A stretch of 64,000 bases of DNA. Source: Candidatus Bathyarchaeia archaeon. Lineage in GTDB: Bacteria > Patescibacteriota > Microgenomatia > PFEM01 > JAFGMK01. Shown here in pieces: positions 26,772 to 54,108 of this stretch. The stretch spans positions 317,904 through 381,903 of the forward strand of contig DATKWK010000035.1 of the NCBI GenBank assembly GCA_035529595.1, read 5' to 3'. Numbering within the stretch: position 1 is the stretch's first letter; every line of letters begins with the position of its first letter. The notes under the pieces were generated by a model, which was not told the DNA's origin, made no database searches, and was given only the letters and a program-made list of their open reading frames with translations. The translations under genes and the position numbers were made by a program.

Positions 26772-26883
26772 AACAATGATAACTTCAAAGTGCCTCCGAC
26801 AATCTAAGAATATTATAACAGAGACGATAGAAGGAAAAACTTACACAAGCATCAAGGATAAATCATCTTGAATGTCTTATTTT

Positions 26884-28254
26884 TTAATAGTGAACTATCT
26901 GTCTTAATAATCGTTTGTGAAACTCGGTGATACGCTCATCGATCAAAATATCATTACGCCATATTCTTTTGGTCAAAATTATCCCCTCTAAACTCCGGCA
27001 CCGGCTCAGGGCGACATAAGTTTGGCCATGGGCAAAGGGCGACCGGCTGAAATCAACACAAACTTTATCCAGAGACATGCCCTGGCTTTTATGAACGGTA
27101 ATCGCCCAGGCTAGCCGGAGCGGATATTGTTTCAGTTTGCCGATGACTTTTTCCACGAGCCCTCCGGTTTCCTGATTATATTCGTATTCGATGTTGTCCC
27201 ACTCGTTGATATCGACCGCCACAATTTTTTTGGTTTCATTAATTTTGACCTCGATTAAATCCTCAGCCAACTCGTCAACCTTACCCAATGTCCCGTTTAC
27301 CCACCGTCTACCCGGATCGTTTTTGACAAATAAAACTCTCGCCCCTTTCTTAAGCTTTAATTCCAAATCAACCGGCAAATTCCGGTTCTCGGTCGGAAAG
27401 TCGCCCTCGATCGCCGCCTGGTAAACAAACAACGGCTTTTTTATCTTGTCGAGTTTTCTTTGATTAATTGCCTCGGCGGTTTTATTGACCGTGCATAAAA
27501 CAATATGGCTCCCGGGCGGTTGTTTGGCCGTTACTCTTTGATTAATTAAACTGAAAGTATCAGCAGAGACGTCACCCGATCTAACCTGGTTAAGGAATTC
27601 AATAAAATGAAGTTCCTTTTGCCGGAAAATTGTTTTTAGCTCAATCACATTAAAATCGTCCAGTTCAAAAGAATTGGCGCTGAAAAAATAGGGAGAATCA
27701 TAAAGCTGGCTATAGGTCGAGATATCCTGATAGGTAATCACCGGCGGCAGCTGGTATAAATCGCCGACGATAACTACTTGAATACCCCCAAACGGCAATC
27801 TTTCGTCCCGGCCATTAAGTCTTAAAAAACGGTCAACACCGTCAAACAGATCCGCCCTGACCATGGAGATCTCATCAATCACCAGGCAGTCCAAATCGGC
27901 AAAGATTCGCTTTCCGGTCCTCCTGATGGCTTTCGGTTCAATTAACCGGGGAGGAAAACCGAAAAATGAGTGGATTGTTTGCCCGCGGATATTTAAAGCG
28001 GCAATTCCGGTTGGTGCCAGGACGACCACTTTCTTTTTGGTCTGGTTACGGAAGTATTGGATCAGCATCGACTTGCCGGTCCCGGCTTTACCAATGATAA
28101 AGAGATTTTGGTTGGTATTCTCCAAGATCTCCAAGCACTTTTTATGTTCCTCCGTTAAGACATAGGCATTGTCTCTTTTAAACTTATTCAGAATCTTTTT
28201 AAAGATTTTGGGTTGGCTCATGTTTGTGTTTTCTTCATGTTTTAAAGTATACAC
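26884..28254 (-). CDS. PIF1/RecD-family SF1 DNA helicase. The start may instead be the internal ATG at 28221-28223.
   Basis: Walker A IIGKAGTGKSMLI, Walker B LVIDEISMV, and helicase motifs through the C-terminus (VHKSQGMSLD). The 28254 start is a GTG that overlaps a repeat element. Confidence 0.85.
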   Translation of the reverse strand: MYTLKHEENTNMSQPKIFKKILNKFKRDNAYVLTEEHKKCLEILENTNQNLFIIGKAGTGKSMLIQYFRNQTKKKVVVLAPTGIAALNIRGQTIHSFFGFPPRLIEPKAIRRTGKRIFADLDCLVIDEISMVRADLFDGVDRFLRLNGRDERLPFGGIQVVIVGDLYQLPPVITYQDISTYSQLYDSPYFFSANSFELDDFNVIELKTIFRQKELHFIEFLNQVRSGDVSADTFSLINQRVTAKQPPGSHIVLCTVNKTAEAINQRKLDKIKKPLFVYQAAIEGDFPTENRNLPVDLELKLKKGARVLFVKNDPGRRWVNGTLGKVDELAEDLIEVKINETKKIVAVDINEWDNIEYEYNQETGGLVEKVIGKLKQYPLRLAWAITVHKSQGMSLDKVCVDFSRSPFAHGQTYVALSRCRSLEGIILTKRIWRNDILIDERITEFHKRLLRQIVHY

Positions 28255-28369
28255 CAGAATTATCGGCTGTAGGCTGGATACTTTTTTAAATCAGGAGAAG
28301 GAAAAAGTTAAAAAAGGTAATTGAAGAAAATTTTACCGAGGTGCAATGGAAAAAGTACCTTGAAGGTGG
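28239..28369. repeat. Composite palindromic element, family A-pal (core GTTTTAAAGTATACACCAGAATTATCGGCTGTAGGCTGGATAC ... right end GTACCTTGAAGGTGG).
   Basis: Shares the AAGTATACACC..TCGGC core and the ACCTTGAAGGTGG hairpin end with copies at 32014, 33645, 37291, 38390 and 42316. Confidence 0.6.
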
Positions 28370-28581: not shown

Positions 28582-29121
28582 CTAACTTTTTATCTTGCTA
28601 AGTTTTTCTTTGGCGATCTCAAATACTGGCTGGTGGTGAAATTTTACTTGTATGTTGTCATCAAGTTTAAGACTGACCATCGGAAACATCGGCTGATTCA
28701 TTTTACTTTTATCCCAAGCTAAGTGAGGGTATTTTTGGGTAAAAGATTCAAAGTCTTCGTCAATAATAAATTCCGCATGTTCTAATGCCGACGGGCAAAC
28801 TTGTTCTTCTTTTGGAGCGATTAATTCTAAGGCAGTAATAGAGTAGTTTTTATAAAACAGGGGTTGTTTGAGCATGAAAAGTCCAACCCGCCGGCCGCCA
28901 ACTAAGTTTTCGTCTAAAAAGTCTCCTTCTTTTTGTAACTCTTGTTTTAACTGGTCATAGTCCTCATTCGAGGAAGCCTGGTAACCAAGATGGTCCATTT
29001 CATACTGAGAAATATCGATACCAACCTCGTTTAGTTTTTGAAAGAAAAAGTTTAAGAAAGTAGTCTGGTCAAGTTTAATCATAGTGATGATTTTAACACC
29101 GGCGTGCCAAGGGTAAAACAA
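28582..29121 (-). CDS. Hypothetical protein. Its N-terminal third is duplicated at 33146-33408.
   Basis: 179 aa. Nucleotides 28836-29100 are near-identical to 33146-33400. Confidence 0.5.
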   Translation of the reverse strand: MFYPWHAGVKIITMIKLDQTTFLNFFFQKLNEVGIDISQYEMDHLGYQASSNEDYDQLKQELQKEGDFLDENLVGGRRVGLFMLKQPLFYKNYSITALELIAPKEEQVCPSALEHAEFIIDEDFESFTQKYPHLAWDKSKMNQPMFPMVSLKLDDNIQVKFHHQPVFEIAKEKLSKIKS

Positions 29122-31954: not shown

Positions 31955-32013
31955 CTTTGAGAAAATAATTTATTGACCACACCTCAAATTATTTCTTCTT
32001 TTTATCTGTTTTT

Positions 32014-32108
32014 CTTATTAATTACACCTTCAAGATGCCTTAGATATGATTCTTCTTGTTTTAAGTATACACCCAAATTATCGGTTGCAAGTTTTAGGGA
32101 AGACACCT
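32014..32108. repeat. A-pal family element, complete copy.
   Basis: ACACCTTCAAGATGCCTTAGATATGATTCTTCTTGTTTTAAGTATACACCCAAATTATCGGTTGCAAGTTTTAGGGAAGACACCTTGAGGGTGTAG. Confidence 0.6.
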
Positions 32109-32178
32109 TGAGGGTGTAGTAGGCTAGCTCCGTAAGAAATGCCCTGCGAGACAGACAACGTTTAGCCTTTTTTAAAAG

Positions 32179-32508
32179 TTATTGAGCCAGCTTTGAAAGA
32201 AACATATTCACAAGCGACAAAACGATAGCTGCAATCAAGGCCGTTCTAAATCCTGCAACACTAAAACCGGGCACAATTTTGCTCATTATCATTAAGAGGA
32301 GTGCGTTAATAACAAAAGTGAACAACCCTAATGTTAAAATATTTATCGGTAGCGTCAATAGTATTACTACGGGTTTAACTAACAAAGTTAACAATCCCCA
32401 TACGACTGAAATAACAAGCAAGGCTTGCCAACCACTAACTATAAAACCTGGCACTAAGTATGCGGTCACGTAGAATGCAAGGGCACTGACCAATAATTGT
32501 ATAAACAT
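32179..32508 (-). CDS. Phage-holin family 4-like small membrane protein (YvlD/PF04020-like).
   Basis: 109 aa with 4 TM segments and the pattern ..YLVPGF.V.GW..LL.....GLL...VKP...LLTLP.N..TLGLFTFVINALLL.....VPGF.V.GF..ALIAAIVLSLVN. Confidence 0.55.
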   Translation of the reverse strand: MFIQLLVSALAFYVTAYLVPGFIVSGWQALLVISVVWGLLTLLVKPVVILLTLPINILTLGLFTFVINALLLMIMSKIVPGFSVAGFRTALIAAIVLSLVNMFLSKLAQ

Positions 32509-32811
32509 ATTATTATTCTAAACCACGAACCCTGTACTGTAAATCACTTACTGAATCATCAATTCTACGCCGATAAACCCAGTCTTCCCCTAGTTAACAA
32601 TAGGTAGTATGCTCGCTTAATCCCTGACCTTTATCAAATGCAAAAGGGGTGATTGTTCCAGTCGGTTTATTAATAATTTCTTTGCTGACAACGGAACCCT
32701 CTTGATAATTTATTGTTTGATTAATATTCTTAGAATTGGTCATAAAATAAGATTTTATCACAGAAAAATATCAGCCTAATCAATTAGCTGTATAATTAAT
32801 TAGGTAAAATT

Positions 32812-33030
32812 ATGAAAATATCGGTAATAGTCCATCCGAATTCAAAAAATCCAAGAATAGAAAAAGACTTAATGAGCGTATTACATATTTATGTAAAGGC
32901 ACCGCCATTGGAAGGAAAGGCTAACAAGGCAGTCATTGAAGCATTGGCAATATTTTTTAAAACCAAAAAGGGAAAGATAATCTTAAAACGGGGAGAGAAA
33001 TCGAGAAATAAAGTATTTGAAATAGGCTGA
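32812..33030 (+). CDS. DUF167/YggU-family protein.
   Basis: 72 aa. VKAPPLEGKANKAVIEALAIFFKTKKGKIILKRGEKSRNKVFEI matches the DUF167 core (P.eGkAN.alI..La..). Confidence 0.7.
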   Translation: MKISVIVHPNSKNPRIEKDLMSVLHIYVKAPPLEGKANKAVIEALAIFFKTKKGKIILKRGEKSRNKVFEIG

Positions 33031-33145
33031 AATTTACCGATATTGATTGCTCCCAGGTGGGGCTCAGACTTCAAAAAAATTAGGTTTATAAAATAAAACA
33101 ATGTCAATCCTTATGGGATTAGATTTTTAGATAGTTGTTGAAGCT

Positions 33146-33408
33146 TAATTCCAAGGCAGTAATAGAGTAGTTTTTATAAAACAGGGGTTGTTTGAGTCTG
33201 AAAAGTCTCCTTCTTTTTGTAACTCTTGTTTTAACTGGTCATAGTCCTCATTCGAGGAAGCCTGGTAACCAAGATGATCCATTTCATACTGAGAAATATC
33301 GATACCAACCTCGTTTAGTTTTTGGAAGAAAGAGTTTAAGAAAGTAGTCTGGTCAAGTTTAATCATAGTGATGATTTTAACACCGGCGGCGCTCCAAAGG
33401 AAAGACAC
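33146..33408 (-). pseudogene. Truncated duplicate of the 5' third of gene 28582-29121.
   Basis: About 250 nt near-identical to 28836-29100, with a 45-nt internal deletion. The ORF ends after 87 aa with unrelated residues. Confidence 0.6.
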
Positions 33409-33644
33409 CTTGAAGGTGGTTAACTACCTATTAAAAATAAGGGTAATCTCTACCAAATACCTTTTACTTCAAGATAGATAATTGAAACAATCATCATCAC
33501 AATCATAAAAAGAAAAATATATATAAATCTGGCCTTTTTATTGCGCGGTAGTTTTAAGTAACCCTCTTTAGTAATCAAAGGCGAAAAAACCTTGTGCAAA
33601 ATTTTAATTAAAAAATTTTCCATGCCGGCAATCCTTTTATGATT

Positions 33645-33722
33645 ACACTTTTAAAGTGTCTCAGATTAGCCACTTCTTGTTAAGTATACACCAAAGTTCT
33701 CGGCCGTAAGCTTGATGTTTTC
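33645..33722. repeat. A-pal family element (left hairpin plus core).
   Basis: ACACTTTTAAAGTGTCTCAGATTAGCCACTTCTTGTTAAGTATACACCAAAGTTCTCGGCCGTAAGCTTGATGTTTTC. A right-end-type hairpin (GACACCTTGAAGGTGG) lies at 33398-33424. Confidence 0.55.
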
Positions 33723-34347
33723 AAAAATATCAGCATTAAAGTATCTATCGAGATTTTAAACAGAGTTCTGATTAAATGATGCAAAGGCACTAAGTTCTGA
33801 TACAAAAATTGATAATAAGCCGTTTCTCTGGTGTCGGGATTGGGAACAACCGCTTCCGCAGTTAACTCAGAATACCGATAAAACTATAAAATTCAAACTT
33901 CCGTTTCCATAAAAATCTACCAGCTGATATAATTTGTTGTAAGATTCAAGGTTATCTTTTCTGAAAGTAGAAAATTCCTTAACCTTGGAATTGAAGAAAG
34001 CACTGACACTAAAATTATTCTAATCGGTAAGAAAGTCTGACTGCATATCTTAATCGATTATGACCGAAGATAGATCAACCCAAGAAACCAAATCAAAACC
34101 CCCGACACCTGAGGATATAAAAGAAGCCTACCATTAGCACCAACTATTTAAAGATGGCTGGCTAACTGCCCATGAATTATCAGAACTAAAACCAGGAGAT
34201 AAACCCGGTTCAACTGGCGAAGTTTTTAAGGTCGAGACCAAAAGTCTTCGGGCAATAAAAGCAATTCTCGACAGAGACTTACCCGATGACGAATTTCGAG
34301 CCGGACTGGAAGAAATAAGATCGTTACTACCCCGGCCCTTTGAGAAA

Positions 34348-37190: not shown

Positions 37191-37290
37191 GATTTATATT
37201 ATATTTTAAAAATAATTTTTGAGCAATATTGAATATTTTTTATCTGGCTTTATCAGTAATTTTCTTCATATTCAATAAATCTATAGAATT

Positions 37291-37384
37291 ACACCTTCAG
37301 GGTGTCTCAGATATGGCACTTCTTGTTAAGTATACACCAAAATTACCGGCCGTAAGCTTGAGGGAAGACACTTTGAAGGTACAG
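37291..37384. repeat. A-pal family element, complete copy.
   Basis: ACACCTTCAGGGTGTCTCAGATATGGCACTTCTTGTTAAGTATACACCAAAATTACCGGCCGTAAGCTTGAGGGAAGACACTTTGAAGGT. Confidence 0.6.
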
Positions 37385-37400
37385 TTAGCCGGTTTTATTT

Positions 37401-38366: not shown

Positions 38367-38389
38367 GCTCTGGTAATTTATATATTTGG

Positions 38390-38663
38390 TACACCTTCAA
38401 AATGTCTCAGATTAGACACTTCTTTTATAAGTATACACCAAAATTCTCGGCCGAAAGCTTGATATTTTCACAAATTTTGCATCCTTGTCATCCTAATCCC
38501 GACTTTAGGTCGTGGAGAAGGATCCAGCGAAGCCAAGTCTGACTTGGCGAAGCGCTTACGCTAGATTCCTTGGAATGACAATAGAGTCTTGAAATAGGTT
38601 CTGATTTTTTTAAATCAGTAGAAAAAGTACCAAGGTGTCAAGGGAAAGACACCTTGAAGGTGT
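38390..38663. repeat. A-pal family element carrying a nested B-pal palindrome.
   Basis: Left ACACCTTCAAAATGTCTCAGATTAGACACTTCTTTTATAAGTATACACCAAAATTCTCGGCCGAAAGCTTGA. Right ...AAAAAGTACCAAGGTGTCAAGGGAAAGACACCTTGAAGGTGTT. Interior 38484-38580 is the second B-pal palindrome. Confidence 0.6.
38484..38580. repeat. Imperfect palindromic element, family B-pal, copy 2 (TTGTCATCC...GGAATGACAA), nested in an A-pal element.
   Basis: Terminal arms ttgtcatcc / ggaatgacaa are exact reverse complements. The interior gaaggatccagcgaagccaagtc-tgac-ttggcgaagcgcttacgctagattcc is palindromic. Its right arm matches copy 1 (14677-14768) in reverse orientation. Confidence 0.6.
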
Positions 38664-42315: not shown

Positions 42316-42403
42316 TTAAATCAAAAACAGTGAAAAGGCAAAAAGGGCAATTGGAGAAAAAAAATTCACCGAGGTTCAATGGGAAAAGTACCTTGAAGGT
42401 GGT
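42316..42403. repeat. A-pal family right-end element (TTTAAATCAA..GAAAAGGCAA..TTCACCGAGGTTCAATGGGAAAAGTACCTTGAAGGTGG).
   Basis: About 75% identical over about 80 nt to 28290-28369. Directly abuts the stop of the 42413 gene. Confidence 0.55.
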
Positions 42404-42412
42404 TACCTTTAT

Positions 42413-45259
42413 TCATAGGTTGTATTTGTCTTTTCTTTTTTCAAATGCCGCCTCACCGCCATCAAGAATGTCGCAAGCGTGTTCTCTAATTCCACAAGAC
42501 AGCAAAACAATTTCTTGAGTTTTATCCCTTTCTTTCGTGTACTCTAATGAGCCACTTAGATAATCAAACTTCTGGTTATCTTTATTTTTTCGGTCGTCGC
42601 CGTGCTGATTAGCAACCATGACTTGCTCCGAGTCAGCACCAACGACTAAATTTGCATTATGGCTAACCATAATAATTTGTCGCCTTTTCTTTTGCTCTTT
42701 CAAATAGGGAACAATCGAAAAATACATTGACCGGCTATCAAGGTCGTCCTCTGGCTGGTCAATCAAAAGAGGCCATGTGTCCGATTCTTTGGTTAACAGA
42801 AGGGTAAGCGCAAATAATGCCTGCTTTCCTTCTGTCATCGAACTACTACTGAAACCACCAATTGTGTCGTTTTCCATAGTTGAGTTGAACCGAATATCTT
42901 CAACGAAGGTTAAAACTTCCTTAGCGCAAAGTTGCGAATCTTCATCAAACAACACCTTTTGTTTTTTGGCAAACACGGCATCAAGAAAATTGTGAGGGTC
43001 ACTTCTTATTAAGTCGATTTTTAATAAATCTTTCTCTCTGTCAATAAAATCACTGCTCTCTTTTCTATTAAAGCGTGCGGATAGCTCTTCAAATTTTTGG
43101 GGATGGAATTGAATTTCAACCCCGAAACGGATTTTGCTATCTGACTGCTCAAGTGCAGCAAATTTCGTCTTTAGGGTATCTAGGGCTGAAGTTCTGTCGC
43201 TAACACTTTTTTTAATTAGTTCAGACAAATCTCTTAACTCGGTGTTTTTATCGGCGATTTCCTGTGTCAACTTTTCTATTGCCGATTTTCTTTCCTTCTG
43301 CTTGTCTAACTTCTCGATCAAATCCTGCAATTGCTCGTTTTTCTTACACTTTTCGATTAAATCCTTATTTGAATCGTATAGGGTTTTAATTTCAGACTGA
43401 ACTCGTGACTTCTCCTTATCCAAATCAGATTTATAGGCAAGAATTCTTTTTTGTACCAGCCCGCTAACGGTACTTGACCATTGAGTAACATCTTGGGTAA
43501 TCTTCTTCTGTAAATTTAACGGCAACGACTCGATTGCGGGCATAAAAGAAACTTTCGTAGTAATAGAGATAACCTTATCTTTCCTGTCGCTATCGTCTCG
43601 GTAAATAAATCCTTCAAGTTCGCCAAGCTCTTCATCAATCTTTTTTAATCTTGCTTCCTTGTTATGGATATCCTGACTTAGTTCCTTGTATTTTTTGACG
43701 TCTTCGTCGCTAAGGGAAGCAATTTTCTTAAGCTCATCGATCTTTTTTTCAAAATCCGCAATAACCTTTTCAATAGCTGTTTTGTCACCTTGCTCTTTAA
43801 TCTCTAGTTCTAGAGATCTAACTTCCTCTTTCGTGACAAACCACTTTGTAACTGATTCGGTAATGCTTTTGTTGTAAGTGTCTCTAATATCAATCTGGAG
43901 TCGCTCATAAACTTGTTTAATTTCCGGATAATTCTCAAACAACACAGGTTTAATCATGGCTGTAATATCATCCGGACGACTGCTTAATTCAGCCAGATAA
44001 TTTTGTGGAATATAAACAACTTTTCCGTGTTGCGTTAGTCCGTTACCCCACTCAACGGCAACCTCAAAGTTCACATCTTCCCAACTAACTTTTGCCGCGG
44101 GACCTTCGGGCTTGATCCCCTTTGCGCTTTCAGGGTCAACTGAACAAGCGAGATAGGCCAAAAGCGCTGATTTACCAGACGATCTACTTCCAATAATTGA
44201 GCTAAGGTTATCGTTAAACAGAATTTCATTCGGAAAATCAGAAGTGTTTTTAAAAATTATTTTACGAATAACACGGTCGGGCAACTTTCCACCCGGAGGA
44301 ATCGAGCCCATAAATACTCTTTCGCCGCTAATTGGCTCATAGACAATTTGTTTTAAGCCTTCATAAGTCAAATCGGCCTTTATCCAAGTAATCTCTTTCT
44401 CTACCTCACCTTTAGCATTTACAACTTTTTTGCCTAGGAAGTTGTCAACATCCTCGAAAGAATGCGCATCGCTACCAGACAATACCGGTTTTGGTGCTGT
44501 TTCTTCACCGTTATCTAGGCGTTCTTTATCCGAGAAGTGATCAACATTAGTTGAGCTTCCAAAAAACCCGTGACTAAACTTGTCTATCTCATCAGTAATT
44601 ACCGCCTTTCTCTGTTTGCCTCTAACTTTTCCAGCCACTTTTTCAGTATCCGTTCTAATGCCATCATTGTTTGCGGCGGCAATAATAAGCATATAATCAG
44701 TAAGATCAATCTTACTTCCAAAGGTTGCCTTAATTGCATCCTCTATGAACTGCCTTGTTGTTGTAGCTTTCTCAAAATCTTTGGTTGACGAAAGTTCAGA
44801 AGCCTTTATGTTTTTGCCTGAAAGGTTGTTGGTTTCATTTGTTTTGAGACTACTTAAAAACTCCCCAAGTCTGCTTTTGATATTCGGCATATCAGAATTA
44901 ACAATAAGGTGCAGATTTACTTCCTCCCCAGCTTTATTAACTACATCATTAGTACATACTTCAATATTTGGGAAAAACACTTTTGAGGAGTCGGGGTATT
45001 TATTTTTAAATTTATCTATAAAGGTAAAATAATTATCAACCGAAAAATAATCAGTGATACCAATTGCTACGACATCAGATTCCTCAATCTTCTTACAAAA
45101 TATATCCCAGGGATCACCGTCCTTTAATTTATATTGGTCATTCTTTTTGGTTCCAGGTGTATGAACTTGCAAATCCCATTTTCTCCATAGAGAACCCCGC
45201 GGATCGTTGATTCGTGTGTCTCGATCGTTCTGGTTATTGTTGCCACTACGTTTAGTCAT
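42413..45259 (-). CDS. PHP-domain phosphoesterase fused to an SMC/OLD-like ABC ATPase with a long coiled-coil insert; Ppl-like candidate antiviral defence protein.
   Basis: N-terminal PHP motifs WDLQVHTPGT (DLHVHT-like), GITDYFS, NIEVCTN, NLHLIV. Walker A GSRSSGKSALLAYLA at about aa 370. About 250 aa of E/K-rich coiled coil. C-terminal signature-like SMTEGKQALFAL, Walker B LLIDQPEDDLD, H-loop MVSHNANLV. This architecture (PHP plus ABC ATPase) matches the single-gene 'Ppl' defence system described among recently catalogued anti-phage genes. Confidence 0.65.
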   Translation of the reverse strand: MTKRSGNNNQNDRDTRINDPRGSLWRKWDLQVHTPGTKKNDQYKLKDGDPWDIFCKKIEESDVVAIGITDYFSVDNYFTFIDKFKNKYPDSSKVFFPNIEVCTNDVVNKAGEEVNLHLIVNSDMPNIKSRLGEFLSSLKTNETNNLSGKNIKASELSSTKDFEKATTTRQFIEDAIKATFGSKIDLTDYMLIIAAANNDGIRTDTEKVAGKVRGKQRKAVITDEIDKFSHGFFGSSTNVDHFSDKERLDNGEETAPKPVLSGSDAHSFEDVDNFLGKKVVNAKGEVEKEITWIKADLTYEGLKQIVYEPISGERVFMGSIPPGGKLPDRVIRKIIFKNTSDFPNEILFNDNLSSIIGSRSSGKSALLAYLACSVDPESAKGIKPEGPAAKVSWEDVNFEVAVEWGNGLTQHGKVVYIPQNYLAELSSRPDDITAMIKPVLFENYPEIKQVYERLQIDIRDTYNKSITESVTKWFVTKEEVRSLELEIKEQGDKTAIEKVIADFEKKIDELKKIASLSDEDVKKYKELSQDIHNKEARLKKIDEELGELEGFIYRDDSDRKDKVISITTKVSFMPAIESLPLNLQKKITQDVTQWSSTVSGLVQKRILAYKSDLDKEKSRVQSEIKTLYDSNKDLIEKCKKNEQLQDLIEKLDKQKERKSAIEKLTQEIADKNTELRDLSELIKKSVSDRTSALDTLKTKFAALEQSDSKIRFGVEIQFHPQKFEELSARFNRKESSDFIDREKDLLKIDLIRSDPHNFLDAVFAKKQKVLFDEDSQLCAKEVLTFVEDIRFNSTMENDTIGGFSSSSMTEGKQALFALTLLLTKESDTWPLLIDQPEDDLDSRSMYFSIVPYLKEQKKRRQIIMVSHNANLVVGADSEQVMVANQHGDDRKNKDNQKFDYLSGSLEYTKERDKTQEIVLLSCGIREHACDILDGGEAAFEKRKDKYNL

Positions 45260-45355
45260 TGTTTTTCTCCACCACTTTTATTTCGTCATCTGTAAGTCCG
45301 CAGAGCTTATAAACCATTTGATCAATTTATTTTTCGTATTCGCGGACTTTCGTCC

Positions 45356-47209
45356 TTATATTTCCGGTAAATGACTTTTAAGATATTTTTCTGTATCTTT
45401 ATCAATAAAATAAACATATACTCCCTTATGGGCCCGAGAAAGAAGTACGCGATAAACGTTTTTTAAGTGATTCGTGAGATTTGGATTATTACGTTTTACT
45501 TGCGTATCATGAGAATTTTCCGGAATCGCTCGCCACTTACTTTCAACCGGATCAAAAACCAAATCATTTCCAAAAATAACTGCAATATAGTCAAATTCAA
45601 ACCCTTGAGCTGTATAAACAGTTCCCACCTGTTCCATCCCCGAATCATCGGTAGCCCATTTCCAAAACTGGTCTTTTTTTTCCCATGGCATTTCGAAGTT
45701 TCCTATTTTTACGTCGTTAACTAAAGAATTATCTGGGATTGGTTTACTCCACGACCAACAAAATCCTGCAGTAATCCTCGCGGAATTAGGTTTCTCATGA
45801 TTTCTCTTCCGAATTTCTTCCATCATCTCTTGCGGGCTTTTAAAAATTTTAAATTCCATTTTAGGATCATATTCCGAAAATTCACTATCACCAATTCTTA
45901 AAACAAAATCTAACCATTGAAGGTAAGCATCGGAACCTGAACATCTAAATTGTGTTTTAAGCTCAAATTCAGAGATATCAGATTTTTTAATTCCCAAACG
46001 TTGCACTGCTTTTTTTATCATCTCGACGCTTCCTATTTCGTTCGGTCTCACGATCTGATTTTCGTCAATAAAGAAAATGCTTAATTTCGCTACATTTAAC
46101 AATTCGTCTATTTGGGGCAAATCTGTTCTTTGAACTTTCGGTGTATATCTATCTATGCTTGATTCTCTTATACGATGTGCCTCGTCGCAAATAAGCACAT
46201 CAAAAGAACCTGACTTCGTTGCAATAAAGCTGTTGAAAAATTTGAACAGGTTTTTTGCCCGAACACCAACTATATTTCTTAATGTATTTGTAAACGCGGA
46301 CGATCCCGTGGCATGTACGACCTTTCTCCCTTGCCTCAAAAGCTCCCCCATAACTTCTAATGCTATTACAGACTTCCCTGTGCCGGGACCACCCTTTACT
46401 ATCACTACTGATTTTTGCTTTGTTTTTGCGAACTGCTTAACTTTGTGCCTTATTGCATTGTAGGCAACAATTTGTTCATCAATTAAATTAAAAATTTGCC
46501 GTTTATTTATCATCTCCGATGTATGATCAAGTAGTTTTCTAGACGGTTCGATTGGGCTTCTTGCAAATCGTTCGTAAATCAATTTACCCTTACCACCCTG
46601 AAGGCGCTTTTTTAGATATCTTCCCAATTCAATAGCGTCTTCTTTTGCAAACAATGGAAAGGTTTTGATTAATTTAGAAAATTCCGAAGAAAAAAGTATG
46701 GCATCTTTATTCTTTGAATAATTATGTAGATATACAGATGCGCTTAATTCTGGCGAGTTCTTTTCTTGAAAAATCCTAAGAAAATCCTTTAGGCCGAAAT
46801 AGTATCCTTGCACTTGTAGCACGGGGTGTGGTTGTTCCCTCTTAAATTGCCCATAATCGACGACTACATTACCTTCACTTTCGGCGTCTTGCACGTGTTG
46901 ATTTGACCATTGTTTGAGTTCCATCATTACAACATTTTCTTCTCCATCCACGTCATGCCCAAAAAGCAAAACATCAATTCTTCGCGACGAAAAAGGAAGT
47001 TCGTATTCGACAATTATATGGTTGTCTTTAAGGCCGGCGTAATGAAAACTATTATTTAGGATTGCAAGCGAAATTGCCCATGATCTATATTCACGATCAG
47101 CTGGATCCTTTTTGTAGTAAGCTCGATATTTTTCGGCCGCACGATCCGCAATGCAGTTTTGCATTACATCTTCGTTAAATCGCTCGATTGTGCCTTCATA
47201 AAGAATCAT
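45356..47209 (-). CDS. DUF2075-like protein: N-terminal PD-(D/E)xK-type nuclease fused to an SF1/RecD-like P-loop helicase-like ATPase.
   Basis: N-terminal IDVLLFGHD...VVMMELKQW (D...ExK). Walker A VIVKGGPGTGKSVIALEVM. Walker B VLICDEAHRI. C-terminal TVYTAQGFEFDYIAVIFGNDLVFD, characteristic of DUF2075/UvrD_C_2-type domains. Confidence 0.7.
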   Translation of the reverse strand: MILYEGTIERFNEDVMQNCIADRAAEKYRAYYKKDPADREYRSWAISLAILNNSFHYAGLKDNHIIVEYELPFSSRRIDVLLFGHDVDGEENVVMMELKQWSNQHVQDAESEGNVVVDYGQFKREQPHPVLQVQGYYFGLKDFLRIFQEKNSPELSASVYLHNYSKNKDAILFSSEFSKLIKTFPLFAKEDAIELGRYLKKRLQGGKGKLIYERFARSPIEPSRKLLDHTSEMINKRQIFNLIDEQIVAYNAIRHKVKQFAKTKQKSVVIVKGGPGTGKSVIALEVMGELLRQGRKVVHATGSSAFTNTLRNIVGVRAKNLFKFFNSFIATKSGSFDVLICDEAHRIRESSIDRYTPKVQRTDLPQIDELLNVAKLSIFFIDENQIVRPNEIGSVEMIKKAVQRLGIKKSDISEFELKTQFRCSGSDAYLQWLDFVLRIGDSEFSEYDPKMEFKIFKSPQEMMEEIRKRNHEKPNSARITAGFCWSWSKPIPDNSLVNDVKIGNFEMPWEKKDQFWKWATDDSGMEQVGTVYTAQGFEFDYIAVIFGNDLVFDPVESKWRAIPENSHDTQVKRNNPNLTNHLKNVYRVLLSRAHKGVYVYFIDKDTEKYLKSHLPEI

Positions 47210-47323
47210 AATTGAAGTTTATTGTTTTAGTATGATTACCTTTTTGCTTTACCTAATGATTATAAATTTATTTCCGATCTCACTCACCTCTAAATTTAAT
47301 AATTTCTTTAATCAGACATGAAC

Positions 47324-48016
47324 TTATATTAAGTTTTGTTCCTTTAAACTGTAAAATTTGTTTTTAGTAACGATAATGTGATCGAGAAGTTCAATACCAA
47401 AAATTTTAGCTGCTTCTTCCAAGCGTCTCGTTAGCGCAACGTCTTCCGGTGAGGCTTCAGGATTTTCCGATGGATGGTTATGGGCAATTATTATTTGTGC
47501 AGCAAAGGACTGAATCGCTTCTTTAAAAACTTCCCGGGGGTGTACAATACTTGAATTAAGCGAACCTACTGAAATATTACTGATTTTTATTAAACAATTA
47601 TGTGCATCAAGAGACAGCACAACAAAATGCTCTTTCTTTTCCCGTCCGATAGATTTTTGCAAAAAGTTAGCTACTGCCCTTGATGAATTAAGTGTAATTT
47701 TCTCTGGTAGGTGCTCTCTTGCGAGGCGCTCAGCTACTGCCTGAAAAAGTTTTATACCAAATGCATTAGATGGTCCAATACCTTTAATCTTTTGTAAATC
47801 TTCCAGCGAAGCATCAAGTACTCCTCGTAAACCACTAAGCTCTTTAATAGCTTGTTTTGCCATTTGCTTACAATCTTTCCGAGGGGTACCCAACGTTAAA
47901 AGTAATTCCACAATTTCATAATCAAGAAAACCGTCAAATCCACTTTTCAAGAAACGTATTCTTAATCTTTTCCTGTGGCCTTCCATTTTTTGTGGATCCT
48001 TAAGGGAAATTGTCAT
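47324..48016 (-). CDS. radC: RadC-like JAB/MPN-domain protein.
   Basis: N-terminal HhH region (IKGIGPSNAF). JAMM motif IIIAHNHPSENPEASPEDVALTRRL. Confidence 0.85.
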   Translation of the reverse strand: MTISLKDPQKMEGHRKRLRIRFLKSGFDGFLDYEIVELLLTLGTPRKDCKQMAKQAIKELSGLRGVLDASLEDLQKIKGIGPSNAFGIKLFQAVAERLAREHLPEKITLNSSRAVANFLQKSIGREKKEHFVVLSLDAHNCLIKISNISVGSLNSSIVHPREVFKEAIQSFAAQIIIAHNHPSENPEASPEDVALTRRLEEAAKIFGIELLDHIIVTKNKFYSLKEQNLI

Positions 48017-48022
48017 TATTAC

Positions 48023-48370
48023 CTACAATTTGTCGTATTTAGCATGACGTCCCTTCGCTTTCTCGATAGGATATTTTTCTTCGTTTTTGTCCATCTTTTT
48101 GCTTAAAGCATCGACAATATCTATCTCCAAATCATGGCTCATCAATAATATCCAATAAAGAACATCGGCCAACTCTTCTCCGATATGTTCCTTGTGAGCT
48201 GAAATGTATTCCTCCAATTCTTTTCCGTTTTTCCATTGAAAATGCTCAACAACCTCTGAGGCTTCCAATGTAAGGGAAAGGGCTACATCTTTTGGGTTAT
48301 GAAATTGTTTCCAATCACGAGCGTCTCGGAAGGCAATTATTCGTTTTATTAATTTGTCAAGATTTTTCAT
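48023..48370 (-). CDS. MazG-like nucleoside triphosphate pyrophosphohydrolase (small all-alpha NTP-PPase).
   Basis: 115 aa. EASEVVEHF...EELADVLYWILLMS is the MazG/HisE EExxD/E metal-binding helix pair. Confidence 0.7.
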   Translation of the reverse strand: MKNLDKLIKRIIAFRDARDWKQFHNPKDVALSLTLEASEVVEHFQWKNGKELEEYISAHKEHIGEELADVLYWILLMSHDLEIDIVDALSKKMDKNEEKYPIEKAKGRHAKYDKL

Positions 48371-48443
48371 AATACTTTGTCAGAAAATCAACATCAATCC
48401 TAAAAGCCTTGACGATCCCTGCCTATTGGCAGAAGAAGGGGAT

Positions 48444-48484
48444 AGTTTAAATTTGGCCACTTTAAGCTGATTCTACCACTTTTT
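48444..48484. repeat. 41-bp direct repeat, copy 1 (AGTTTAAATTTGGCCACTTTAAGCTGATTCTACCACTTT).
   Basis: About 38/41 identical to 49441-49479. The two copies bracket the PIG-L gene. Confidence 0.6.
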
Positions 48485-48554
48485 ACCTAGCAGGTCATAC
48501 TGGTTGGCTAATATGACAGATCATCATACGATAACCACTCCGGCAATTGTTATT

Positions 48555-49277
48555 TCACAGAAAATATTCCCTGGAAAGCATCTTGTTCTTGAGAAAGAAT
48601 AAAAAAGACTGCCAGTGAAGCATGTCAAACCTGAACTGCGACTGATGGGACTTTAACGCCAGCAGTTTTTTTATACTGGCGGCAAGGCCCAGTTTCATAA
48701 TAAATTGAGGCTTACTAGGCTTGACTACCTTTTCGGCCAACTTTATGGCTTGTCGAGGTAAAATATAATTAATAGAAACTGTCGCGTATAGAGTTTTGAC
48801 TGGCGGGTCTGAAACCTCAGAGACAAACTTGCTCAGAGAGATATGGTCAGGGTGTCCGTAAATTCCGTTTGGCTCAAGGGTAATTATGTGCGAGGGTCGG
48901 TATAGGGATATTTCTTTTCTTAAACATGACAGTATTTCTTCTCCCCGATTCTTCAAATTTCCATCGCCGAAATCAAATATTTTCAGATCTTTTATCCCCA
49001 ATATCTTCAAAGCATTTTTCAGCTCGATCGATCTTACTTTACCAAGATCCGCAGACTTATCCAGTCTATAGCGAAGAGAACTTCTTTCACCCCGGCTGAA
49101 AGTCAAAACCCGGGTGGGTATTTTACCTAAAAATAGCTTATATAAAGTACCGCCAATAAAAACTGCTTCGTCATCCGGGTGAGGCATACAAACCAAAATC
49201 CGGCTATTTAAAGAAATACCTAATGAGTAAACATCCTTGACAATCTGCATAAAAAAATTTGTCACAGACACCTTCAA
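48555..49277 (-). CDS. PIG-L/LmbE-family N-acetylglucosaminyl deacetylase.
   Basis: N-terminal VCMPHPDDEAVFIGGT (HPDDE motif). Downstream HPDH pair (GIYGHPDHISL). Confidence 0.75.
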   Translation of the reverse strand: MKVSVTNFFMQIVKDVYSLGISLNSRILVCMPHPDDEAVFIGGTLYKLFLGKIPTRVLTFSRGERSSLRYRLDKSADLGKVRSIELKNALKILGIKDLKIFDFGDGNLKNRGEEILSCLRKEISLYRPSHIITLEPNGIYGHPDHISLSKFVSEVSDPPVKTLYATVSINYILPRQAIKLAEKVVKPSKPQFIMKLGLAASIKKLLALKSHQSQFRFDMLHWQSFLFFLKNKMLSREYFL

Positions 49278-49282
49278 AGTGC
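49266..49282. repeat. A-pal family hairpin (GACACCTTCAAAGTGCC) overlapping the PIG-L start.
   Basis: Same hairpin class as the other A-pal ends. Lies at the 5' end of the gene. Confidence 0.45.
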
Positions 49283-49440
49283 CTTAGGTTTCCTGACGTT
49301 TTTTAAAGTTTTAAACTAGGACTAACAATTTTTAGAATATCTTTCTTTTAATTTTCATAAGCAAAAAGATTTTTGGTAAAAATCACAAGAACCAGGGAAA
49401 GCAGGAAAACCAAGCCGGTTTTTTTGACAGAAAGAGAGAG

Positions 49441-49479
49441 AGTTTTAATTTGGCCACTTTAAGCTGATTTTACCACTTT
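49441..49479. repeat. 41-bp direct repeat, copy 2 (AGTTTTAATTTGGCCACTTTAAGCTGATTTTACCACTTT).
   Basis: See copy 1 at 48444-48484. Confidence 0.6.
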
Positions 49480-49551
49480 GTGGCTTAAAGGGGTATTAAT
49501 TAGGTTTAAAAAATCTTTTTTCTCTCGGACGCTAGGTCTCCTACGCTAAAA

Positions 49552-49863
49552 CTACTGCTTATCCTTCAGGTGATAGGCTTGGCTTAACCACCGAATAAGT
49601 TCTTCATTAATTTCTTCTATTGCCTTTAGATCGATACAGTTCTTAAAGACTTTTGCAGACATGGGCACACAGATTTTTAACCTTGGACTATCTAATTTTT
49701 GATCCAGGGCAAATCTGATTTCCAGCTTATCTTTCTTTGGCAAAGCCGCTAAGAAATCATAGTTACCAAACAAATGGATACAACAGGGAATAGAAATTTT
49801 GTGACAGCTATGAGGCTGTTTTGCTTTTTCAAAAACTCTTCCGCACTTGGAACAGGTCCACAT
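49552..49863 (-). CDS. Hypothetical protein with an N-terminal Cys/His zinc-ribbon-like motif.
   Basis: MWTCSKCGRVFEKAKQPHSCH. Confidence 0.4.
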   Translation of the reverse strand: MWTCSKCGRVFEKAKQPHSCHKISIPCCIHLFGNYDFLAALPKKDKLEIRFALDQKLDSPRLKICVPMSAKVFKNCIDLKAIEEINEELIRWLSQAYHLKDKQ

Positions 49864-49989
49864 ACAGCTATTTTACTTCAAATAATAAAATATTTTTTAT
49901 AGTGCATCTTGAGGGCGCATTACATTAATTAGGTTGAGAAAATCCTTTTCGTGTCACTTACTGGGACAATTCTAGAACCAATTTCTTCA

Positions 49990-51387: not shown

Positions 51388-52290
51388 TTAACGAAACATT
51401 TCAATCGCTAGGACTGTATCTTTCACATCAAGGTAGGCTATCATACAACCACATCGGCTACAGTCAATTGTTACTTTCTTTTGATCGGGGCTTCCCATCT
51501 GGCAAGGATAAAGCTTTTTACCCTCGAAATTTAAATTTAATCGCGTTTTAAATTTAGCACTGCATTTTTTGATCCATTTGCCGGCCTGTCTTGAACTCAT
51601 CTTTTGCAAAATTCTTTCGCTATTCCAGGGCATAAACTTAGGTCTTTTTAATCTAAGAGTTTTTAATTTGTCAATCACTCTGTCTCTCTCGCTGAAGGTG
51701 AGGCACAAAGTGTCATCTTCACCTTTTTGGGGAGTATAAAAGTCATAGATTACACCCGCTACTTCAGTTTCAGACCATTCCTTATAAAAGTCTTCAATGT
51801 TATCTTTGTTTTCTTTGCTAATAGTCATAAGTATGTATATTTTTAAACCCTTGGCGGCCCCATCCAGGATGTTTTTTTTGATTAAATCATACTGTTTGCC
51901 GTTGAAACCATTGCCTCTGATTTTTTCGTGGTATTTTTTGGTTCCGTCAACTGAAACACCAAAGGTGACATCTTTCCAATCCGGCAAAGGAATGGTTCCG
52001 TTTGTAATTATCATGTTTACAGGAAAGTATTTTTTTCCAATTTTAATTAGATCTTGTCTAAGTAATGGCTCGCCTCCCACATAGGCCATTGATATGGTCC
52101 CTTGTTTAATCAAACTTCTGAACACTTTTATCCATTTGTCTTCTGGCAAGTCTTGGCTTTTAGAGTTTTTCCTGAAGCAATGTAGGCAATTCAGGTTGCA
52201 CTTATTAGTTACTTCCATTCCCACGGATTTTATTTTTCCAAAAGACAAGACAGATAACTTAATAATCTTTAAAAAACTTTTTACTCTCAT
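51388..52290 (-). CDS. Radical SAM enzyme with a C-terminal Cys-rich (SPASM/twitch-like) region.
   Basis: EVTNKCNLNCLHCF (CxxxCxxC). GGEPLL glycine-rich SAM motif. C-terminal C..C..CSRCGC cysteines. Confidence 0.7.
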   Translation of the reverse strand: MRVKSFLKIIKLSVLSFGKIKSVGMEVTNKCNLNCLHCFRKNSKSQDLPEDKWIKVFRSLIKQGTISMAYVGGEPLLRQDLIKIGKKYFPVNMIITNGTIPLPDWKDVTFGVSVDGTKKYHEKIRGNGFNGKQYDLIKKNILDGAAKGLKIYILMTISKENKDNIEDFYKEWSETEVAGVIYDFYTPQKGEDDTLCLTFSERDRVIDKLKTLRLKRPKFMPWNSERILQKMSSRQAGKWIKKCSAKFKTRLNLNFEGKKLYPCQMGSPDQKKVTIDCSRCGCMIAYLDVKDTVLAIEMFR

Positions 52291-52416
52291 ATTTCTAAAA
52301 TATACTAAATTAACTTCAATTGTAATATTAAACTGACTTTTCCAGTGCCGTTTTATTTCTTACCTAGCCTTCGATACTAAATATACCTCAAACCAATCTG
52401 AAGGAAACTCTGATTA

Positions 52417-52452
52417 CCAAGGTGTCAAGGGTGAGACACCTTAAAGGTGTAT
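52417..52452. repeat. A-pal family right-end hairpin (CCAAGGTGTCAAGGGTGAGACACCTTAAAGGTGTAT).
   Basis: Near-identical in form to 38627-38663 (CCAAGGTGTCAAGGGAAAGACACCTTGAAGGTGTT). Confidence 0.55.
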
Positions 52453-52454
52453 TT

Positions 52455-53288
52455 TTAACCAACCCTAAAGCTTTCTAGAAAGTAGTACCACTGAGCAGTT
52501 TCTTGAACATAGGCATCAATCTGCCGCCAATCGGGGCCGATTCCTTTACCTTGGCTTTGATCAACTATCATTCCCATTTGGCTAAATCTTCTTGGATCAG
52601 GAGCAAAAACAGCCTGGCTGATCCCCAATTCATTTTGGTTCCAAGGTTGGGCCGGTAAAATTTTTATCATTAAACAATCAGCAACAAAATCTCTCATCGT
52701 TGACGGCCGGTCATCAATAAAAACCTGCAGATTAAATCGAGTTATCATGCCGAGTTTAAAATCTAAGTCGGTTACCCCCGGAGAGCGAATAATCAGTCTG
52801 TTTTCGTCGACTACCCAATCCAGGCCGAGATTCTTAAACCAGTCTTGAGTTGCCTGGCCAATTCCATATTGGTCGACTCTACCGCTGATAAAGAAAACTT
52901 CATATCCCTGATTTCGCCAGTCGCAAATTACTTCCAGAGCACCCGGGTAAACGACCGCGTTTTGAAAAACATCAGTTCTCTCATAGTAAAGCTGCTTGAG
53001 AAATTCTTTGGCTCCCGGAGTATCGGCAACTAAAGGATGTTTGGCCAGATCCCAATCAAGAGTATCCTCAACCCGAAGATGAACCTCCTCTCCCCTTATT
53101 TGGCTTAGATATTGACTCATAACTGCAAGTGCGTAAGGATGACTATCGGCAAATGTCCCATCCAGGTCAACACCGATTCCTAACCTTCTGATATCCCACT
53201 CCGGAGTCGACCGGCCAGTTCTTTCTATAGCCATAAAAATGAAGTGGTATATCTTCCACTTTTTCCCACTGTAAGACGATTTTACCAC
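52455..53288 (-). CDS. HAD-like 5'(3')-deoxyribonucleotidase-family protein (putative nucleotidase).
   Basis: IGVDLDGTFADSHPY resembles the NT5C-family motif I (DMDGVLAD). 277 aa. Weak overall. Confidence 0.5.
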   Translation of the reverse strand: MVKSSYSGKKWKIYHFIFMAIERTGRSTPEWDIRRLGIGVDLDGTFADSHPYALAVMSQYLSQIRGEEVHLRVEDTLDWDLAKHPLVADTPGAKEFLKQLYYERTDVFQNAVVYPGALEVICDWRNQGYEVFFISGRVDQYGIGQATQDWFKNLGLDWVVDENRLIIRSPGVTDLDFKLGMITRFNLQVFIDDRPSTMRDFVADCLMIKILPAQPWNQNELGISQAVFAPDPRRFSQMGMIVDQSQGKGIGPDWRQIDAYVQETAQWYYFLESFRVG

Positions 53289-54108
53289 TTCCTGTAAAAA
53301 GTACCTCTTGAAGCTATTGAGTAACTCCGCATCATTCTCTGTAAAGGTTTTTGAAACGATAATGAGACTCTTCTTCTATTTCTCTTGCCCGAGAAGAAAA
53401 ACTCTCCCCTCTTTTTTCAAGTAAACCATCTACTTCCTGCTGCGTATATAGCTTTTCCGGCCAAACAGTCACGTTCCCCTTTTGATCATTTAATTTAATA
53501 TCCATATTTATTTTCACCCCTTTTAATTCTCTGAACGAAACCGAAAACTTTATATCATTCGACTAATAAAGAGCGCAAGCAGCGCGCTACCACAAATTAA
53601 GAAGCTTGTTGTTCACGAGAAAGGACTTGCACCAGTTTAACAATTCTCCAAGCCAAAAAAGCGTACACAATAATTGCTACCGTCATTATTATTTCATCCC
53701 CTTTTGTTTTTTTAAATTATCACAGATTTTTTCTTTATTCTCTGCGTTTGTTAATTTGATAACGTGAGTTTAAGGATCAAGCCACTTTAATATCAGGCTT
53801 CTTAATTATTGTTTCTTTGGGTAAATACTTCATTAAAGCCCTTTCTACTAGAAAGGTTAAGCTGCGTCCCTCAACCACAGCTTGTGCTCTGGCGTGTCTT
53901 AATAGGTCCGGATTAAGAAAAAGAGTTACCCGTTGTTTATTGTTATTTATTGTCATAGTTCACATGGTACCACTAGTTAAAGTTATTATCAAGTATCAGT
54001 TTGGAGCTAGCCCACGAGGTCTATAAAAAGATTAATTGGAAAACCGAGTCCATATTTATCGAAACCCAAGAGTTGGATTGTAAAGAATGGGGGAGAAATC
54101 AAGCTTTC

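Follow-up and report, generated by a model that had tools for sequence, protein, structure and literature searches.

Sigma-70 promoters with a TG-extended -10 box (TGnTATAAT) work without a -35 element. The framework that they share, an extended -10 box, a discriminator and a start element, is conserved across bacteria, a CPR species among them (PMC12641261).

Direct repeats on either side of a gene are familiar from mobile DNA. Integron cassettes consist of a single gene between similar direct repeats and form arrays of small unrelated genes on one strand; they are usually promoterless, the attC site comes after the gene, most cassettes of an array carry one, and attC itself is an imperfect-palindrome hairpin with R''/R' core sites and an accompanying integrase. 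The attL and attR sites of integrative elements are direct repeats tens of bases long around inserted DNA, and such elements often target tRNA genes. Transposons leave exact target-site duplications of 2-15 bp, and REP and MITE repeats occur in many copies and in both orientations, with terminal inverted repeats or a hairpin.

Here we analysed a stretch of 64,000 nucleotides (the window) in which a gene for a PIG-L/LmbE-family deacetylase stands between two copies of a short direct repeat. With moderate confidence, we interpret this repeat as a duplicated extended -10 promoter segment that would serve the adjacent transcription units. The window comes from contig Ga0307378_10000010 (394,681 bp) of JGI metagenome 3300031566, and an 846,852-bp contig encodes the same proteins. 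Its gene products include Lon protease, signal peptidase I, D-Ala-D-Ala ligase, ABC transporters and an ADP-forming acetyl-CoA synthetase, and close homologues of the genes in the window carry the labels Microgenomates, Woesebacteria, Roizmanbacteria or Paceibacterota; the window therefore represents the chromosome of a CPR/Patescibacteria-type bacterium and not a phage or a plasmid. The genes around the repeat, and nearly all others in the window, lie on the minus strand.

The repeat pair and the gene between its copies

The two copies, A and B, are in direct orientation and identical at 39 of 42 positions (Table 1). Gapped local alignment extends their similarity to about 57 nt, beyond which the flanks align no better than shuffled sequence (p = 0.74 upstream and p = 0.14 downstream). 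A repeat of this kind is far beyond chance. Its 23-nt exact core is present at two sites only within the window, those of copies A and B, and 100 dinucleotide-preserving shuffles of the window gave no match to the repeat core with up to three mismatches allowed. The region is the same, base for base, in independent assemblies (one contig from JGI and two from Logan), so we discarded an assembly artefact. An earlier, sequence-only reading of this DNA had reported direct repeats of about 41 bp around the PIG-L gene, and in this it was right.

Read on the minus strand, copy A is AAAGTGGTAAAATCAGCTTAAAGTGGCCAAATTAAAACTCTC and copy B is AAAGTGGTAGAATCAGCTTAAAGTGGCCAAATTTAAACTATC, with the shared pattern AAAGTGG-TA(G/A)AAT-CAGCTTA-AAGTGGCC... 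Copy A is located between the DUF5655 gene and PIG-L, around 190-230 nt upstream of the PIG-L start, and copy B between PIG-L and a MazG-like gene, with its end around 70 nt upstream of the MazG-like ATG (48370). Both copies begin exactly 72 nt after the preceding stop codon, which is that of DUF5655 for copy A and that of PIG-L for copy B, and the two intervening spacers cannot be aligned with each other. This equal spacing counts against a duplicated promoter and would suit a recombination site, which we consider below.

PIG-L is the sole gene between the copies, as had been proposed on the basis of an open reading frame at 48555-49277. The extent of that frame required correction, as alignment to relatives places the start at the ATG at 49250 and not at 49277. 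The gene had also been thought to start within a palindromic hairpin ('A-pal'); with the corrected start, the palindrome lies around 18 nt upstream of the ATG. We rejected kinship of the 42-mer with the repeat family to which this palindrome belongs, as members of that family closely follow stop codons and have a different sequence. PIG-L and the segment between the repeats show nothing unusual in GC, GC3, codon usage or tetranucleotide composition (the last at the 61st percentile), and a foreign origin of the gene was rejected on these grounds. The DUF5655 gene has both termini intact and lacks 33 residues that are present in all homologues; these residues are internal, which led us to discard the idea that the gene was truncated at the copy A junction. 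Downstream of copy B, the MazG-like gene is the first of a unit that continues with RadC, a Schlafen-type helicase and an ATPase.

Table 1 Positions of the repeat copies, their predicted promoter elements and the neighbouring genes in the window.
Feature	Position	Strand	Basis or remark
Repeat copy A	49424..49479; 42-nt core 49438-49479	minus	Pairwise alignment; ~57 nt with decaying tail
Repeat copy B	48426..48482; 42-nt core 48441-48482	minus	Pairwise alignment
Diverged copy C, AAGTGGTAAAATCGTCTTACAGTGG	53266..53290	minus	Promoter core alone in common with A and B
Predicted TG-extended -10 box of copy A, TGGTAAAAT	49467..49475	minus	Predicted start near 49460 (A of CTTA)
Predicted TG-extended -10 box of copy B, TGGTAGAAT	48470..48478	minus	Predicted start near 48463
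Predicted TG-extended -10 box of copy C, TGGTAAAAT	53279..53287	minus	Predicted start near 53272
MazG-like nucleotide pyrophosphohydrolase gene	48023..48370	minus	First gene of the unit downstream of copy B
PIG-L/LmbE-family deacetylase gene, 231 aa	48555..49250	minus	Pfam PF02585, E 1.8e-26; start by homology
'A-pal' palindrome	49268..49282	.	Degenerate member of the ACACCTT-N-AAGGTGT 10-copy family
DUF5655 gene, upstream of copy A	49552..49863	minus	Domain and homologue comparison
HAD-like hydrolase gene, downstream of copy C	52455..53234	minus	JGI-called start

Promoter-like features and a third copy

On the minus strand, copies A and B and a third, diverged copy (C) each contain a TG-extended -10 box of the form TGGTA(A/G)AAT. 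The hexamers are TAAAAT in copies A and C and TAGAAT in copy B, all with the second-position A and the final T of TATAAT; TGG precedes the hexamer in all three, and a T/A start element is conserved 7 nt downstream of the box. A consensus promoter scan lists copy B as promoter-like with TG, and this copy has a weak -35 element (ATGACC) 17 nt upstream of its -10 box. Copies A and C have no recognisable -35 element, which counts against a promoter. From copy A to PIG-L there is no further TAnAAT box, nor is there one from copy B to the MazG-like gene. The predicted start sites follow the geometry of a sigma-70 promoter model (PMC12641261).

A profile built from A and B alone finds copy C (nhmmer, E 0.018 over the 82.6 kb searched of the source contig). 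This copy lies 3.8 kb upstream of the A/B locus, and the start that JGI calls for a HAD-like gene follows around 30 nt downstream of it. The block kept in all three copies, AAGTGGTAnAATCnnCTTAnAGTGG, spans approximately -19 to +8 relative to the A of CTTA, which is the part that RNA polymerase contacts in promoters that rely on the extended -10 box and have no -35 element (PMC12641261). The window has three occurrences of the motif GTGGTAnAAT, one in each copy (0.37 expected), and all three copies are intergenic, on the minus strand, upstream of a gene and within 5 kb of one another.

Boxes of this type are found before other genes as well. In the 82.6 kb of the source contig, a TAnAAT box ends 6-9 nt before the start codon in around 10 genes, several times with a preceding TGG, and relatives have TGGTAnAAT or GGTATAAT boxes 5-7 nt before the ATG, including those of MazG-like orthologues. 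As judged from its sequence and position, the TAnAAT box, in several cases with TGG before it, is the generic signal upstream of genes in the source contig and in relatives. It often lies 5-9 nt ahead of the start codon, and such spacing is what leaderless or short-leader transcription from extended -10 promoters would be expected to show. By contrast, the leaders that the repeat would imply (around 93 nt for the MazG-like gene and 210 nt for PIG-L) are long in comparison with the apparently leaderless majority of genes in this genome, and we count their length against the promoter reading.

The closest MazG-RadC orthologue (85% amino acid identity, with the same order of MazG-like gene and RadC as in the window) has AGTGGTAAAAT 24 nt upstream of its ATG, identical to the box of copies A and C. 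This match is 11 nt in length and weakly significant on its own (shuffle p 0.012-0.3), a further point that we set against a promoter. In relatives, the MazG-like gene always opens its module (MazG-like gene, Schlafen-type helicase and RadC), whereas the genes that precede the module vary; one would thus expect a promoter immediately before the MazG-like gene.

The part of the repeat downstream of the -10 box might instead act as an operator or a leader element, either by binding a regulator or by encoding a leader peptide that couples translation to the next gene; we consider this improbable. A second AGTGG box follows the first by 19 nt in all three copies and similar boxes are present in the sister locus; pairs of AGTGG within 40 nt are over-represented (10 observed versus 3.0 +/- 1.7 expected). 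In addition, a conserved GTG 9 nt after the -10 box opens mini-ORFs of 24, 26 and 14 codons; the one in copy B stops 9 nt before the downstream ATG and the one in copy C around 7 nt after it. However, the mini-ORF of copy A ends around 140 nt before PIG-L, the peptides are alike only through the duplicated DNA, and the imperfect palindrome downstream of the -10 box (TTAAAGTGGCCAAATTTAA) is broken by a T/A difference in copy A and is absent from copy C. The spacers and predicted leaders show no significant RNA structure (RNA fold z -1.2 to +1.1), and for the same reason a structured leader or a terminator was rejected. Rfam gave nothing real for the whole window at gathering thresholds or for the two spacers at permissive thresholds, and we identified no candidate regulator.

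It also seems unlikely to us that the three copies belong to a dispersed family of short repeats (REP- or MITE-like) with other members in the remaining ~90% of the genome. Several other families of short intergenic repeats occur in the window, and the nhmmer census covered 82.6 kb of the source contig, which is around 10% of a genome of ~850 kb. Within these 82.6 kb, the sequence-only reading's contrary case, in which the repeat is one of many dispersed copies with no relation to gene boundaries, did not materialise: there are three copies, all in one orientation, clustered and upstream of genes, without inverted termini or a hairpin and thus different from REP and MITE repeats. The search of the source contig and of all relatives' loci with nhmmer profiles, which the same reading had suggested, yielded copy C and no copy beyond A, B and C. 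Elsewhere, the matches are at chance level and unrelated. The exact 20-mer core has no match in species-representative genomes or in viral contigs, and its three matches in metagenome contigs are one unrelated locus that has around 21 nt in common with the repeat, dismissed as chance. A scan of genome contigs with the degenerate three-copy core gave two matches (Aquificaceae and Anaerolineae), which is the chance rate; the Anaerolineae match is merely another extended -10 promoter.

Origin of the two similar copies

The genes of the locus have other neighbours in relatives. PIG-L follows glyoxalase or GNAT genes there, and the DUF5655 relative with 89% identity is surrounded by different genes, with the MazG-like gene of that assembly on another contig. 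Because PIG-L, DUF5655 and the MazG-like gene are found in unrelated contexts in relatives, we regard the locus as a lineage-specific mosaic and the adjacency of the three genes as recent. Neither blastx nor blastn detected remnants of former neighbours (glyoxalase, GNAT or cupin) in the flanks of PIG-L.

An identity of 39/42 goes beyond the needs of a promoter and counts against selection on the promoter alone. As such selection does not explain the identity, a recent copying event, or gene conversion, is needed. Under the duplicated-promoter reading, a promoter-bearing segment of ~57 nt would have been duplicated, or homogenised by gene conversion, as PIG-L came to lie beside the MazG operon, and the outcome would be a promoter for both the PIG-L and the MazG units. 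Each copy would comprise a sigma-70-type TG-extended -10 box, a short discriminator, a T(-1)/A(+1) start element and the first 20-35 nt of the predicted transcript. Copy A would drive PIG-L; copy B would drive the unit of the MazG-like gene, RadC, helicase and ATPase; and copy C, which is older and diverged, would drive the HAD-like unit. Promoter activity and the positions of the starts, like any co-regulation and the way and direction in which the segment was copied, are predictions from the DNA sequence.

The window contains a second recent duplication. A block of ~290 nt at 33.1 kb is a copy of the promoter and 5' coding part of a YecM-like gene at 28.8 kb, with around 97% identity and an internal deletion of 40 nt. 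The YecM-like promoter in this block is TGTTAAAAT, followed by 7 nt and then the ATG, and the two sequences become identical a short way upstream of the -10 box, like copies A and B. Taken together, the two pairs suggest that short promoter-anchored duplications recur in the window. A recent duplication scar was among the explanations first offered for the repeat. The part of this idea that stands is a short duplication tied to the arrival of PIG-L, in line with the sharp bounds at ~57 nt, the unrelated contexts of PIG-L in relatives and the second promoter-bearing duplication; it missed the promoter role that we propose and the third copy.

The most serious alternative, although still an unlikely one, is that the repeat is a neutral scar of the insertion of PIG-L, left by a Campbell-type single crossover or by an illegitimate or template-switch insertion that duplicated a target of ~50 nt, so that the likeness to a promoter is incidental or only one copy is functional. 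The identity of the copies is sharply bounded, with flanks that do not align, PIG-L is relocated in comparison with all relatives and other recent small duplications are present in the window. Moreover, the 5 nt to the left of copy A (GCCAC, adjoining AAAGT) match the upstream region of MazG in the sister lineage (GCCACAAAGT), and those to the left of copy B do not, which is a weak hint that copy A may have kept the ancestral left junction. However, the additional flank match is 5 nt in length, the MazG operon without copy B has no other promoter-like box, and the older copy C keeps the promoter core alone, again upstream of a gene, which argues for selection there.

No allele without the insertion was found. 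All six contigs listed with the locus, which come from several assemblies, have PIG-L in the same neighbourhood, and the DNA is identical in the three that were compared. Searches for an empty site through the nearest relatives of the MazG-like gene, PIG-L and DUF5655 gave no syntenic locus long enough to decide, and the nearest sister contig, Logan SRR22388171 contig 180065, reaches only 126 nt upstream of the MazG-like gene.

A combination of promoter and recombination functions, in which promoter-bearing repeats double as integrase-independent recombination substrates and PIG-L is excised and re-inserted together with one copy, appears to us very improbable. If true, it would offer this CPR lineage a cassette-like means to shuffle accessory genes as single-gene units, and it would account both for the entire absence of synteny around PIG-L, DUF5655 and the MazG-like gene in relatives and for the other promoter-anchored duplications in the window.

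Comparison with mobile elements, promoters and promoter capture

The direct repeats around PIG-L had also been taken to suggest an excisable cassette or a duplicated att site. In its most general form, this explanation treats the repeat as the site at which an excisable single-gene cassette recombines (integron-like, XerCD/dif-module-like or of a new site-specific system), and PIG-L would move together with one repeat. The likeness to integron cassettes is real in that similar direct repeats stand on either side of exactly one gene, which belongs to an array of small unrelated genes on the same strand; the gene order of this array is not conserved in relatives, and the common 72-nt distance from a stop codon agrees with it. 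The structural hallmarks are nevertheless absent. The 42-mers form no hairpin as single-stranded DNA on either strand (0 to -0.8 kcal/mol; z +0.7 and +1.2), their 91-nt contexts have z values of -0.05 to -2.4 and no common structure, and neither strand of the repeat contains RYYYAAC/GTTRRRY core sites. We found no integrase or other recombinase among ~50 proteins scanned. The repeat, with its three copies in 82.6 kb, does not flank any other gene of the array, no copy lies beside PIG-L homologues elsewhere, and the repeat is promoter-like and located upstream of genes, in contrast to attC. With the ordinary composition of PIG-L and the lack of an empty site among the six contigs, we consider a cassette site highly doubtful.

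The same observations do not support a duplicated att site. The likeness to attL and attR is limited to repeat length and arrangement: the insert is less than 1 kb in length, contains PIG-L only and encodes no recombinase, and it does not differ in composition from its surroundings. The window contains no tRNA or tmRNA that could have been a target. The idea that the repeat is a tRNA fragment, which came from the D-loop likeness of AGTGGTAGAAT, was rejected because complementary D-stem flanks are missing and ARAGORN finds nothing. At 42-57 nt, the repeat also differs from the target-site duplication of a transposon; the inner repeat boundaries have no inverted repeats, and the scanned proteins include no transposase. 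We rank the alternatives to a duplicated promoter with the insertion scar first and the dispersed repeat second, followed by the cassette site and the operator or leader element on a par.

If the promoter reading is right, a streamlined, uncultivated CPR bacterium would have equipped a relocated gene by copying ~50 nt of a neighbouring promoter, and the three copies would provide a testable promoter consensus (TGGTAnAAT and, 7 nt further on, a start element) for a lineage in which transcription data hardly exist. The locus reveals no new mobile element or mechanism. Direct repeats of 42 nt could allow rare RecA-mediated loss of PIG-L, which would be relevant to strain-level variation only.

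Among known systems, promoter capture by small segmental duplication has the same layout, with a short bounded block copied to a site ~1 kb away and each copy before a different gene, and the window offers a second, larger case (28.8 kb to 33.1 kb); the present example comes without an ancestral, pre-insertion allele among the sequences searched. The sequence common to copies A and B (42-57 nt) is much longer than a promoter requires. In its core, the repeat is close to the TG-extended -10 promoters of sigma-70: TGGTA(A/G)AAT agrees with TGnTATAAT at 8 of the 9 specified positions, and the T/A start element, the weak or absent -35 element, the orientation and the position relative to genes all fit this class of promoter.

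Short repeats between genes

Copies A and B, the direct repeats that flank the PIG-L gene, each begin exactly 72 nt past the stop codon of the preceding gene, and the two 72-nt spacers do not align; the equal distance may be a coincidence. One copy of a 26-nt direct repeat (AAAAAGATTTTTTAAACCTAATTAAT on the minus strand; 23/26 identical) lies immediately upstream of copy A and the second lies upstream of the DUF5655 gene, a further short segment common to adjoining intergenic regions.

Two more families of short repeats occupy intergenic positions. The first, ACACCTTCAAGGTGTCTTTCCCTTGACACCTTGGTA (minus strand), is about 36 nt long, has 10 copies between 25029 and 52450 of the window, and contains the palindrome ACACCTT-N-AAGGTGT as well as an alternative 8-bp hairpin. 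Because its copies usually start 4–20 nt past the stop codon of a gene on the minus strand, the family resembles terminators or REP elements, although no T-run follows the copies. A degenerate member precedes PIG-L. The second family consists of AAGTATACACCAAAATTnTCGGCCGTAAGCTTGA bordered by ACACCTTCAAG-type palindromes, in 4–5 copies of 52–100 nt with 61–86% identity.

Coordinates of repeats, duplicated segments and modules in the window
Feature	Positions	Remark
Spacers next to copies B and A	48483–48554, 49480–49551	
AAAAAGATTTTTTAAACCTAATTAAT repeat	49495–49520, 49924–49949	
ACACCTTCAAGGTGTCTTTCCCTTGACACCTTGGTA family, example copies	38628–38663, 52415–52450, 42367–42402, 26842–26877	sequence given for minus strand
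Degenerate ACACCTTCAAGGTGTCTTTCCCTTGACACCTTGGTA member	49268–49282	
AAGTATACACCAAAATTnTCGGCCGTAAGCTTGA family	28240–28291, 32020–32120, 33641–33728, 37287–37385, 38387–38475	
YecM-like gene	28582–29121	
YecM-like duplicated part	28821–29104, 33145–33388	
Stretch holding the duplicate	31955–34347	
DUF5655 gene	49552–49863	
MazG-like module	42413–48370	also loci L007, L012, L023, L024
pVip-like radical SAM	51388–52290	

Duplicated and shortened genes

The promoter and 5′ coding portion of the YecM-like gene recur as a duplicate of around 290 nt (approximately 97% identity, with a 40-nt internal deletion), located in a 2.4-kb stretch with no ORFs of at least 120 aa. The duplicate is probably a pseudogene fragment, the remnant of a recent segmental duplication. 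Compared with every homologue, the DUF5655 gene lacks 33 internal residues through an in-frame deletion, so that its protein has 103 aa instead of 134–138 aa; both the N- and C-terminal ends are conserved, and the gene may be decaying.

Predicted promoter placement and taxonomic label

Many genes, across the whole window and 82.6 kb of the source contig, have a predicted −10 box (TAnAAT) ending 6–9 nt ahead of the start codon. The placement is alike in relatives, which suggests that this CPR lineage commonly has leaderless mRNAs. The genes present (Lon, signal peptidase I, Ddl, amidase_3 and YkuD) are bacterial and CPR-like, as are all close homologues. Proteins identical to window genes (exact matches P0001 and P0233) carry the NCBI label 'Candidatus Bathyarchaeia archaeon'; this label of the MAG is probably wrong.

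A recurrent module with MazG-like and RadC genes

In many CPR genomes, MazG-like, RadC and Schlafen/DUF2075-type helicase genes occur together as a module whose neighbours vary; in the window, the next gene encodes a 948-aa AAA/SMC-like ATPase. The region may be a defence-type island. PADLOC returned only weak partial matches there, to a Ppl/AriA-like ATPase and an Nhi/AbiO/PDC-S41-like helicase, and another weak partial match to a pVip-like radical SAM protein.
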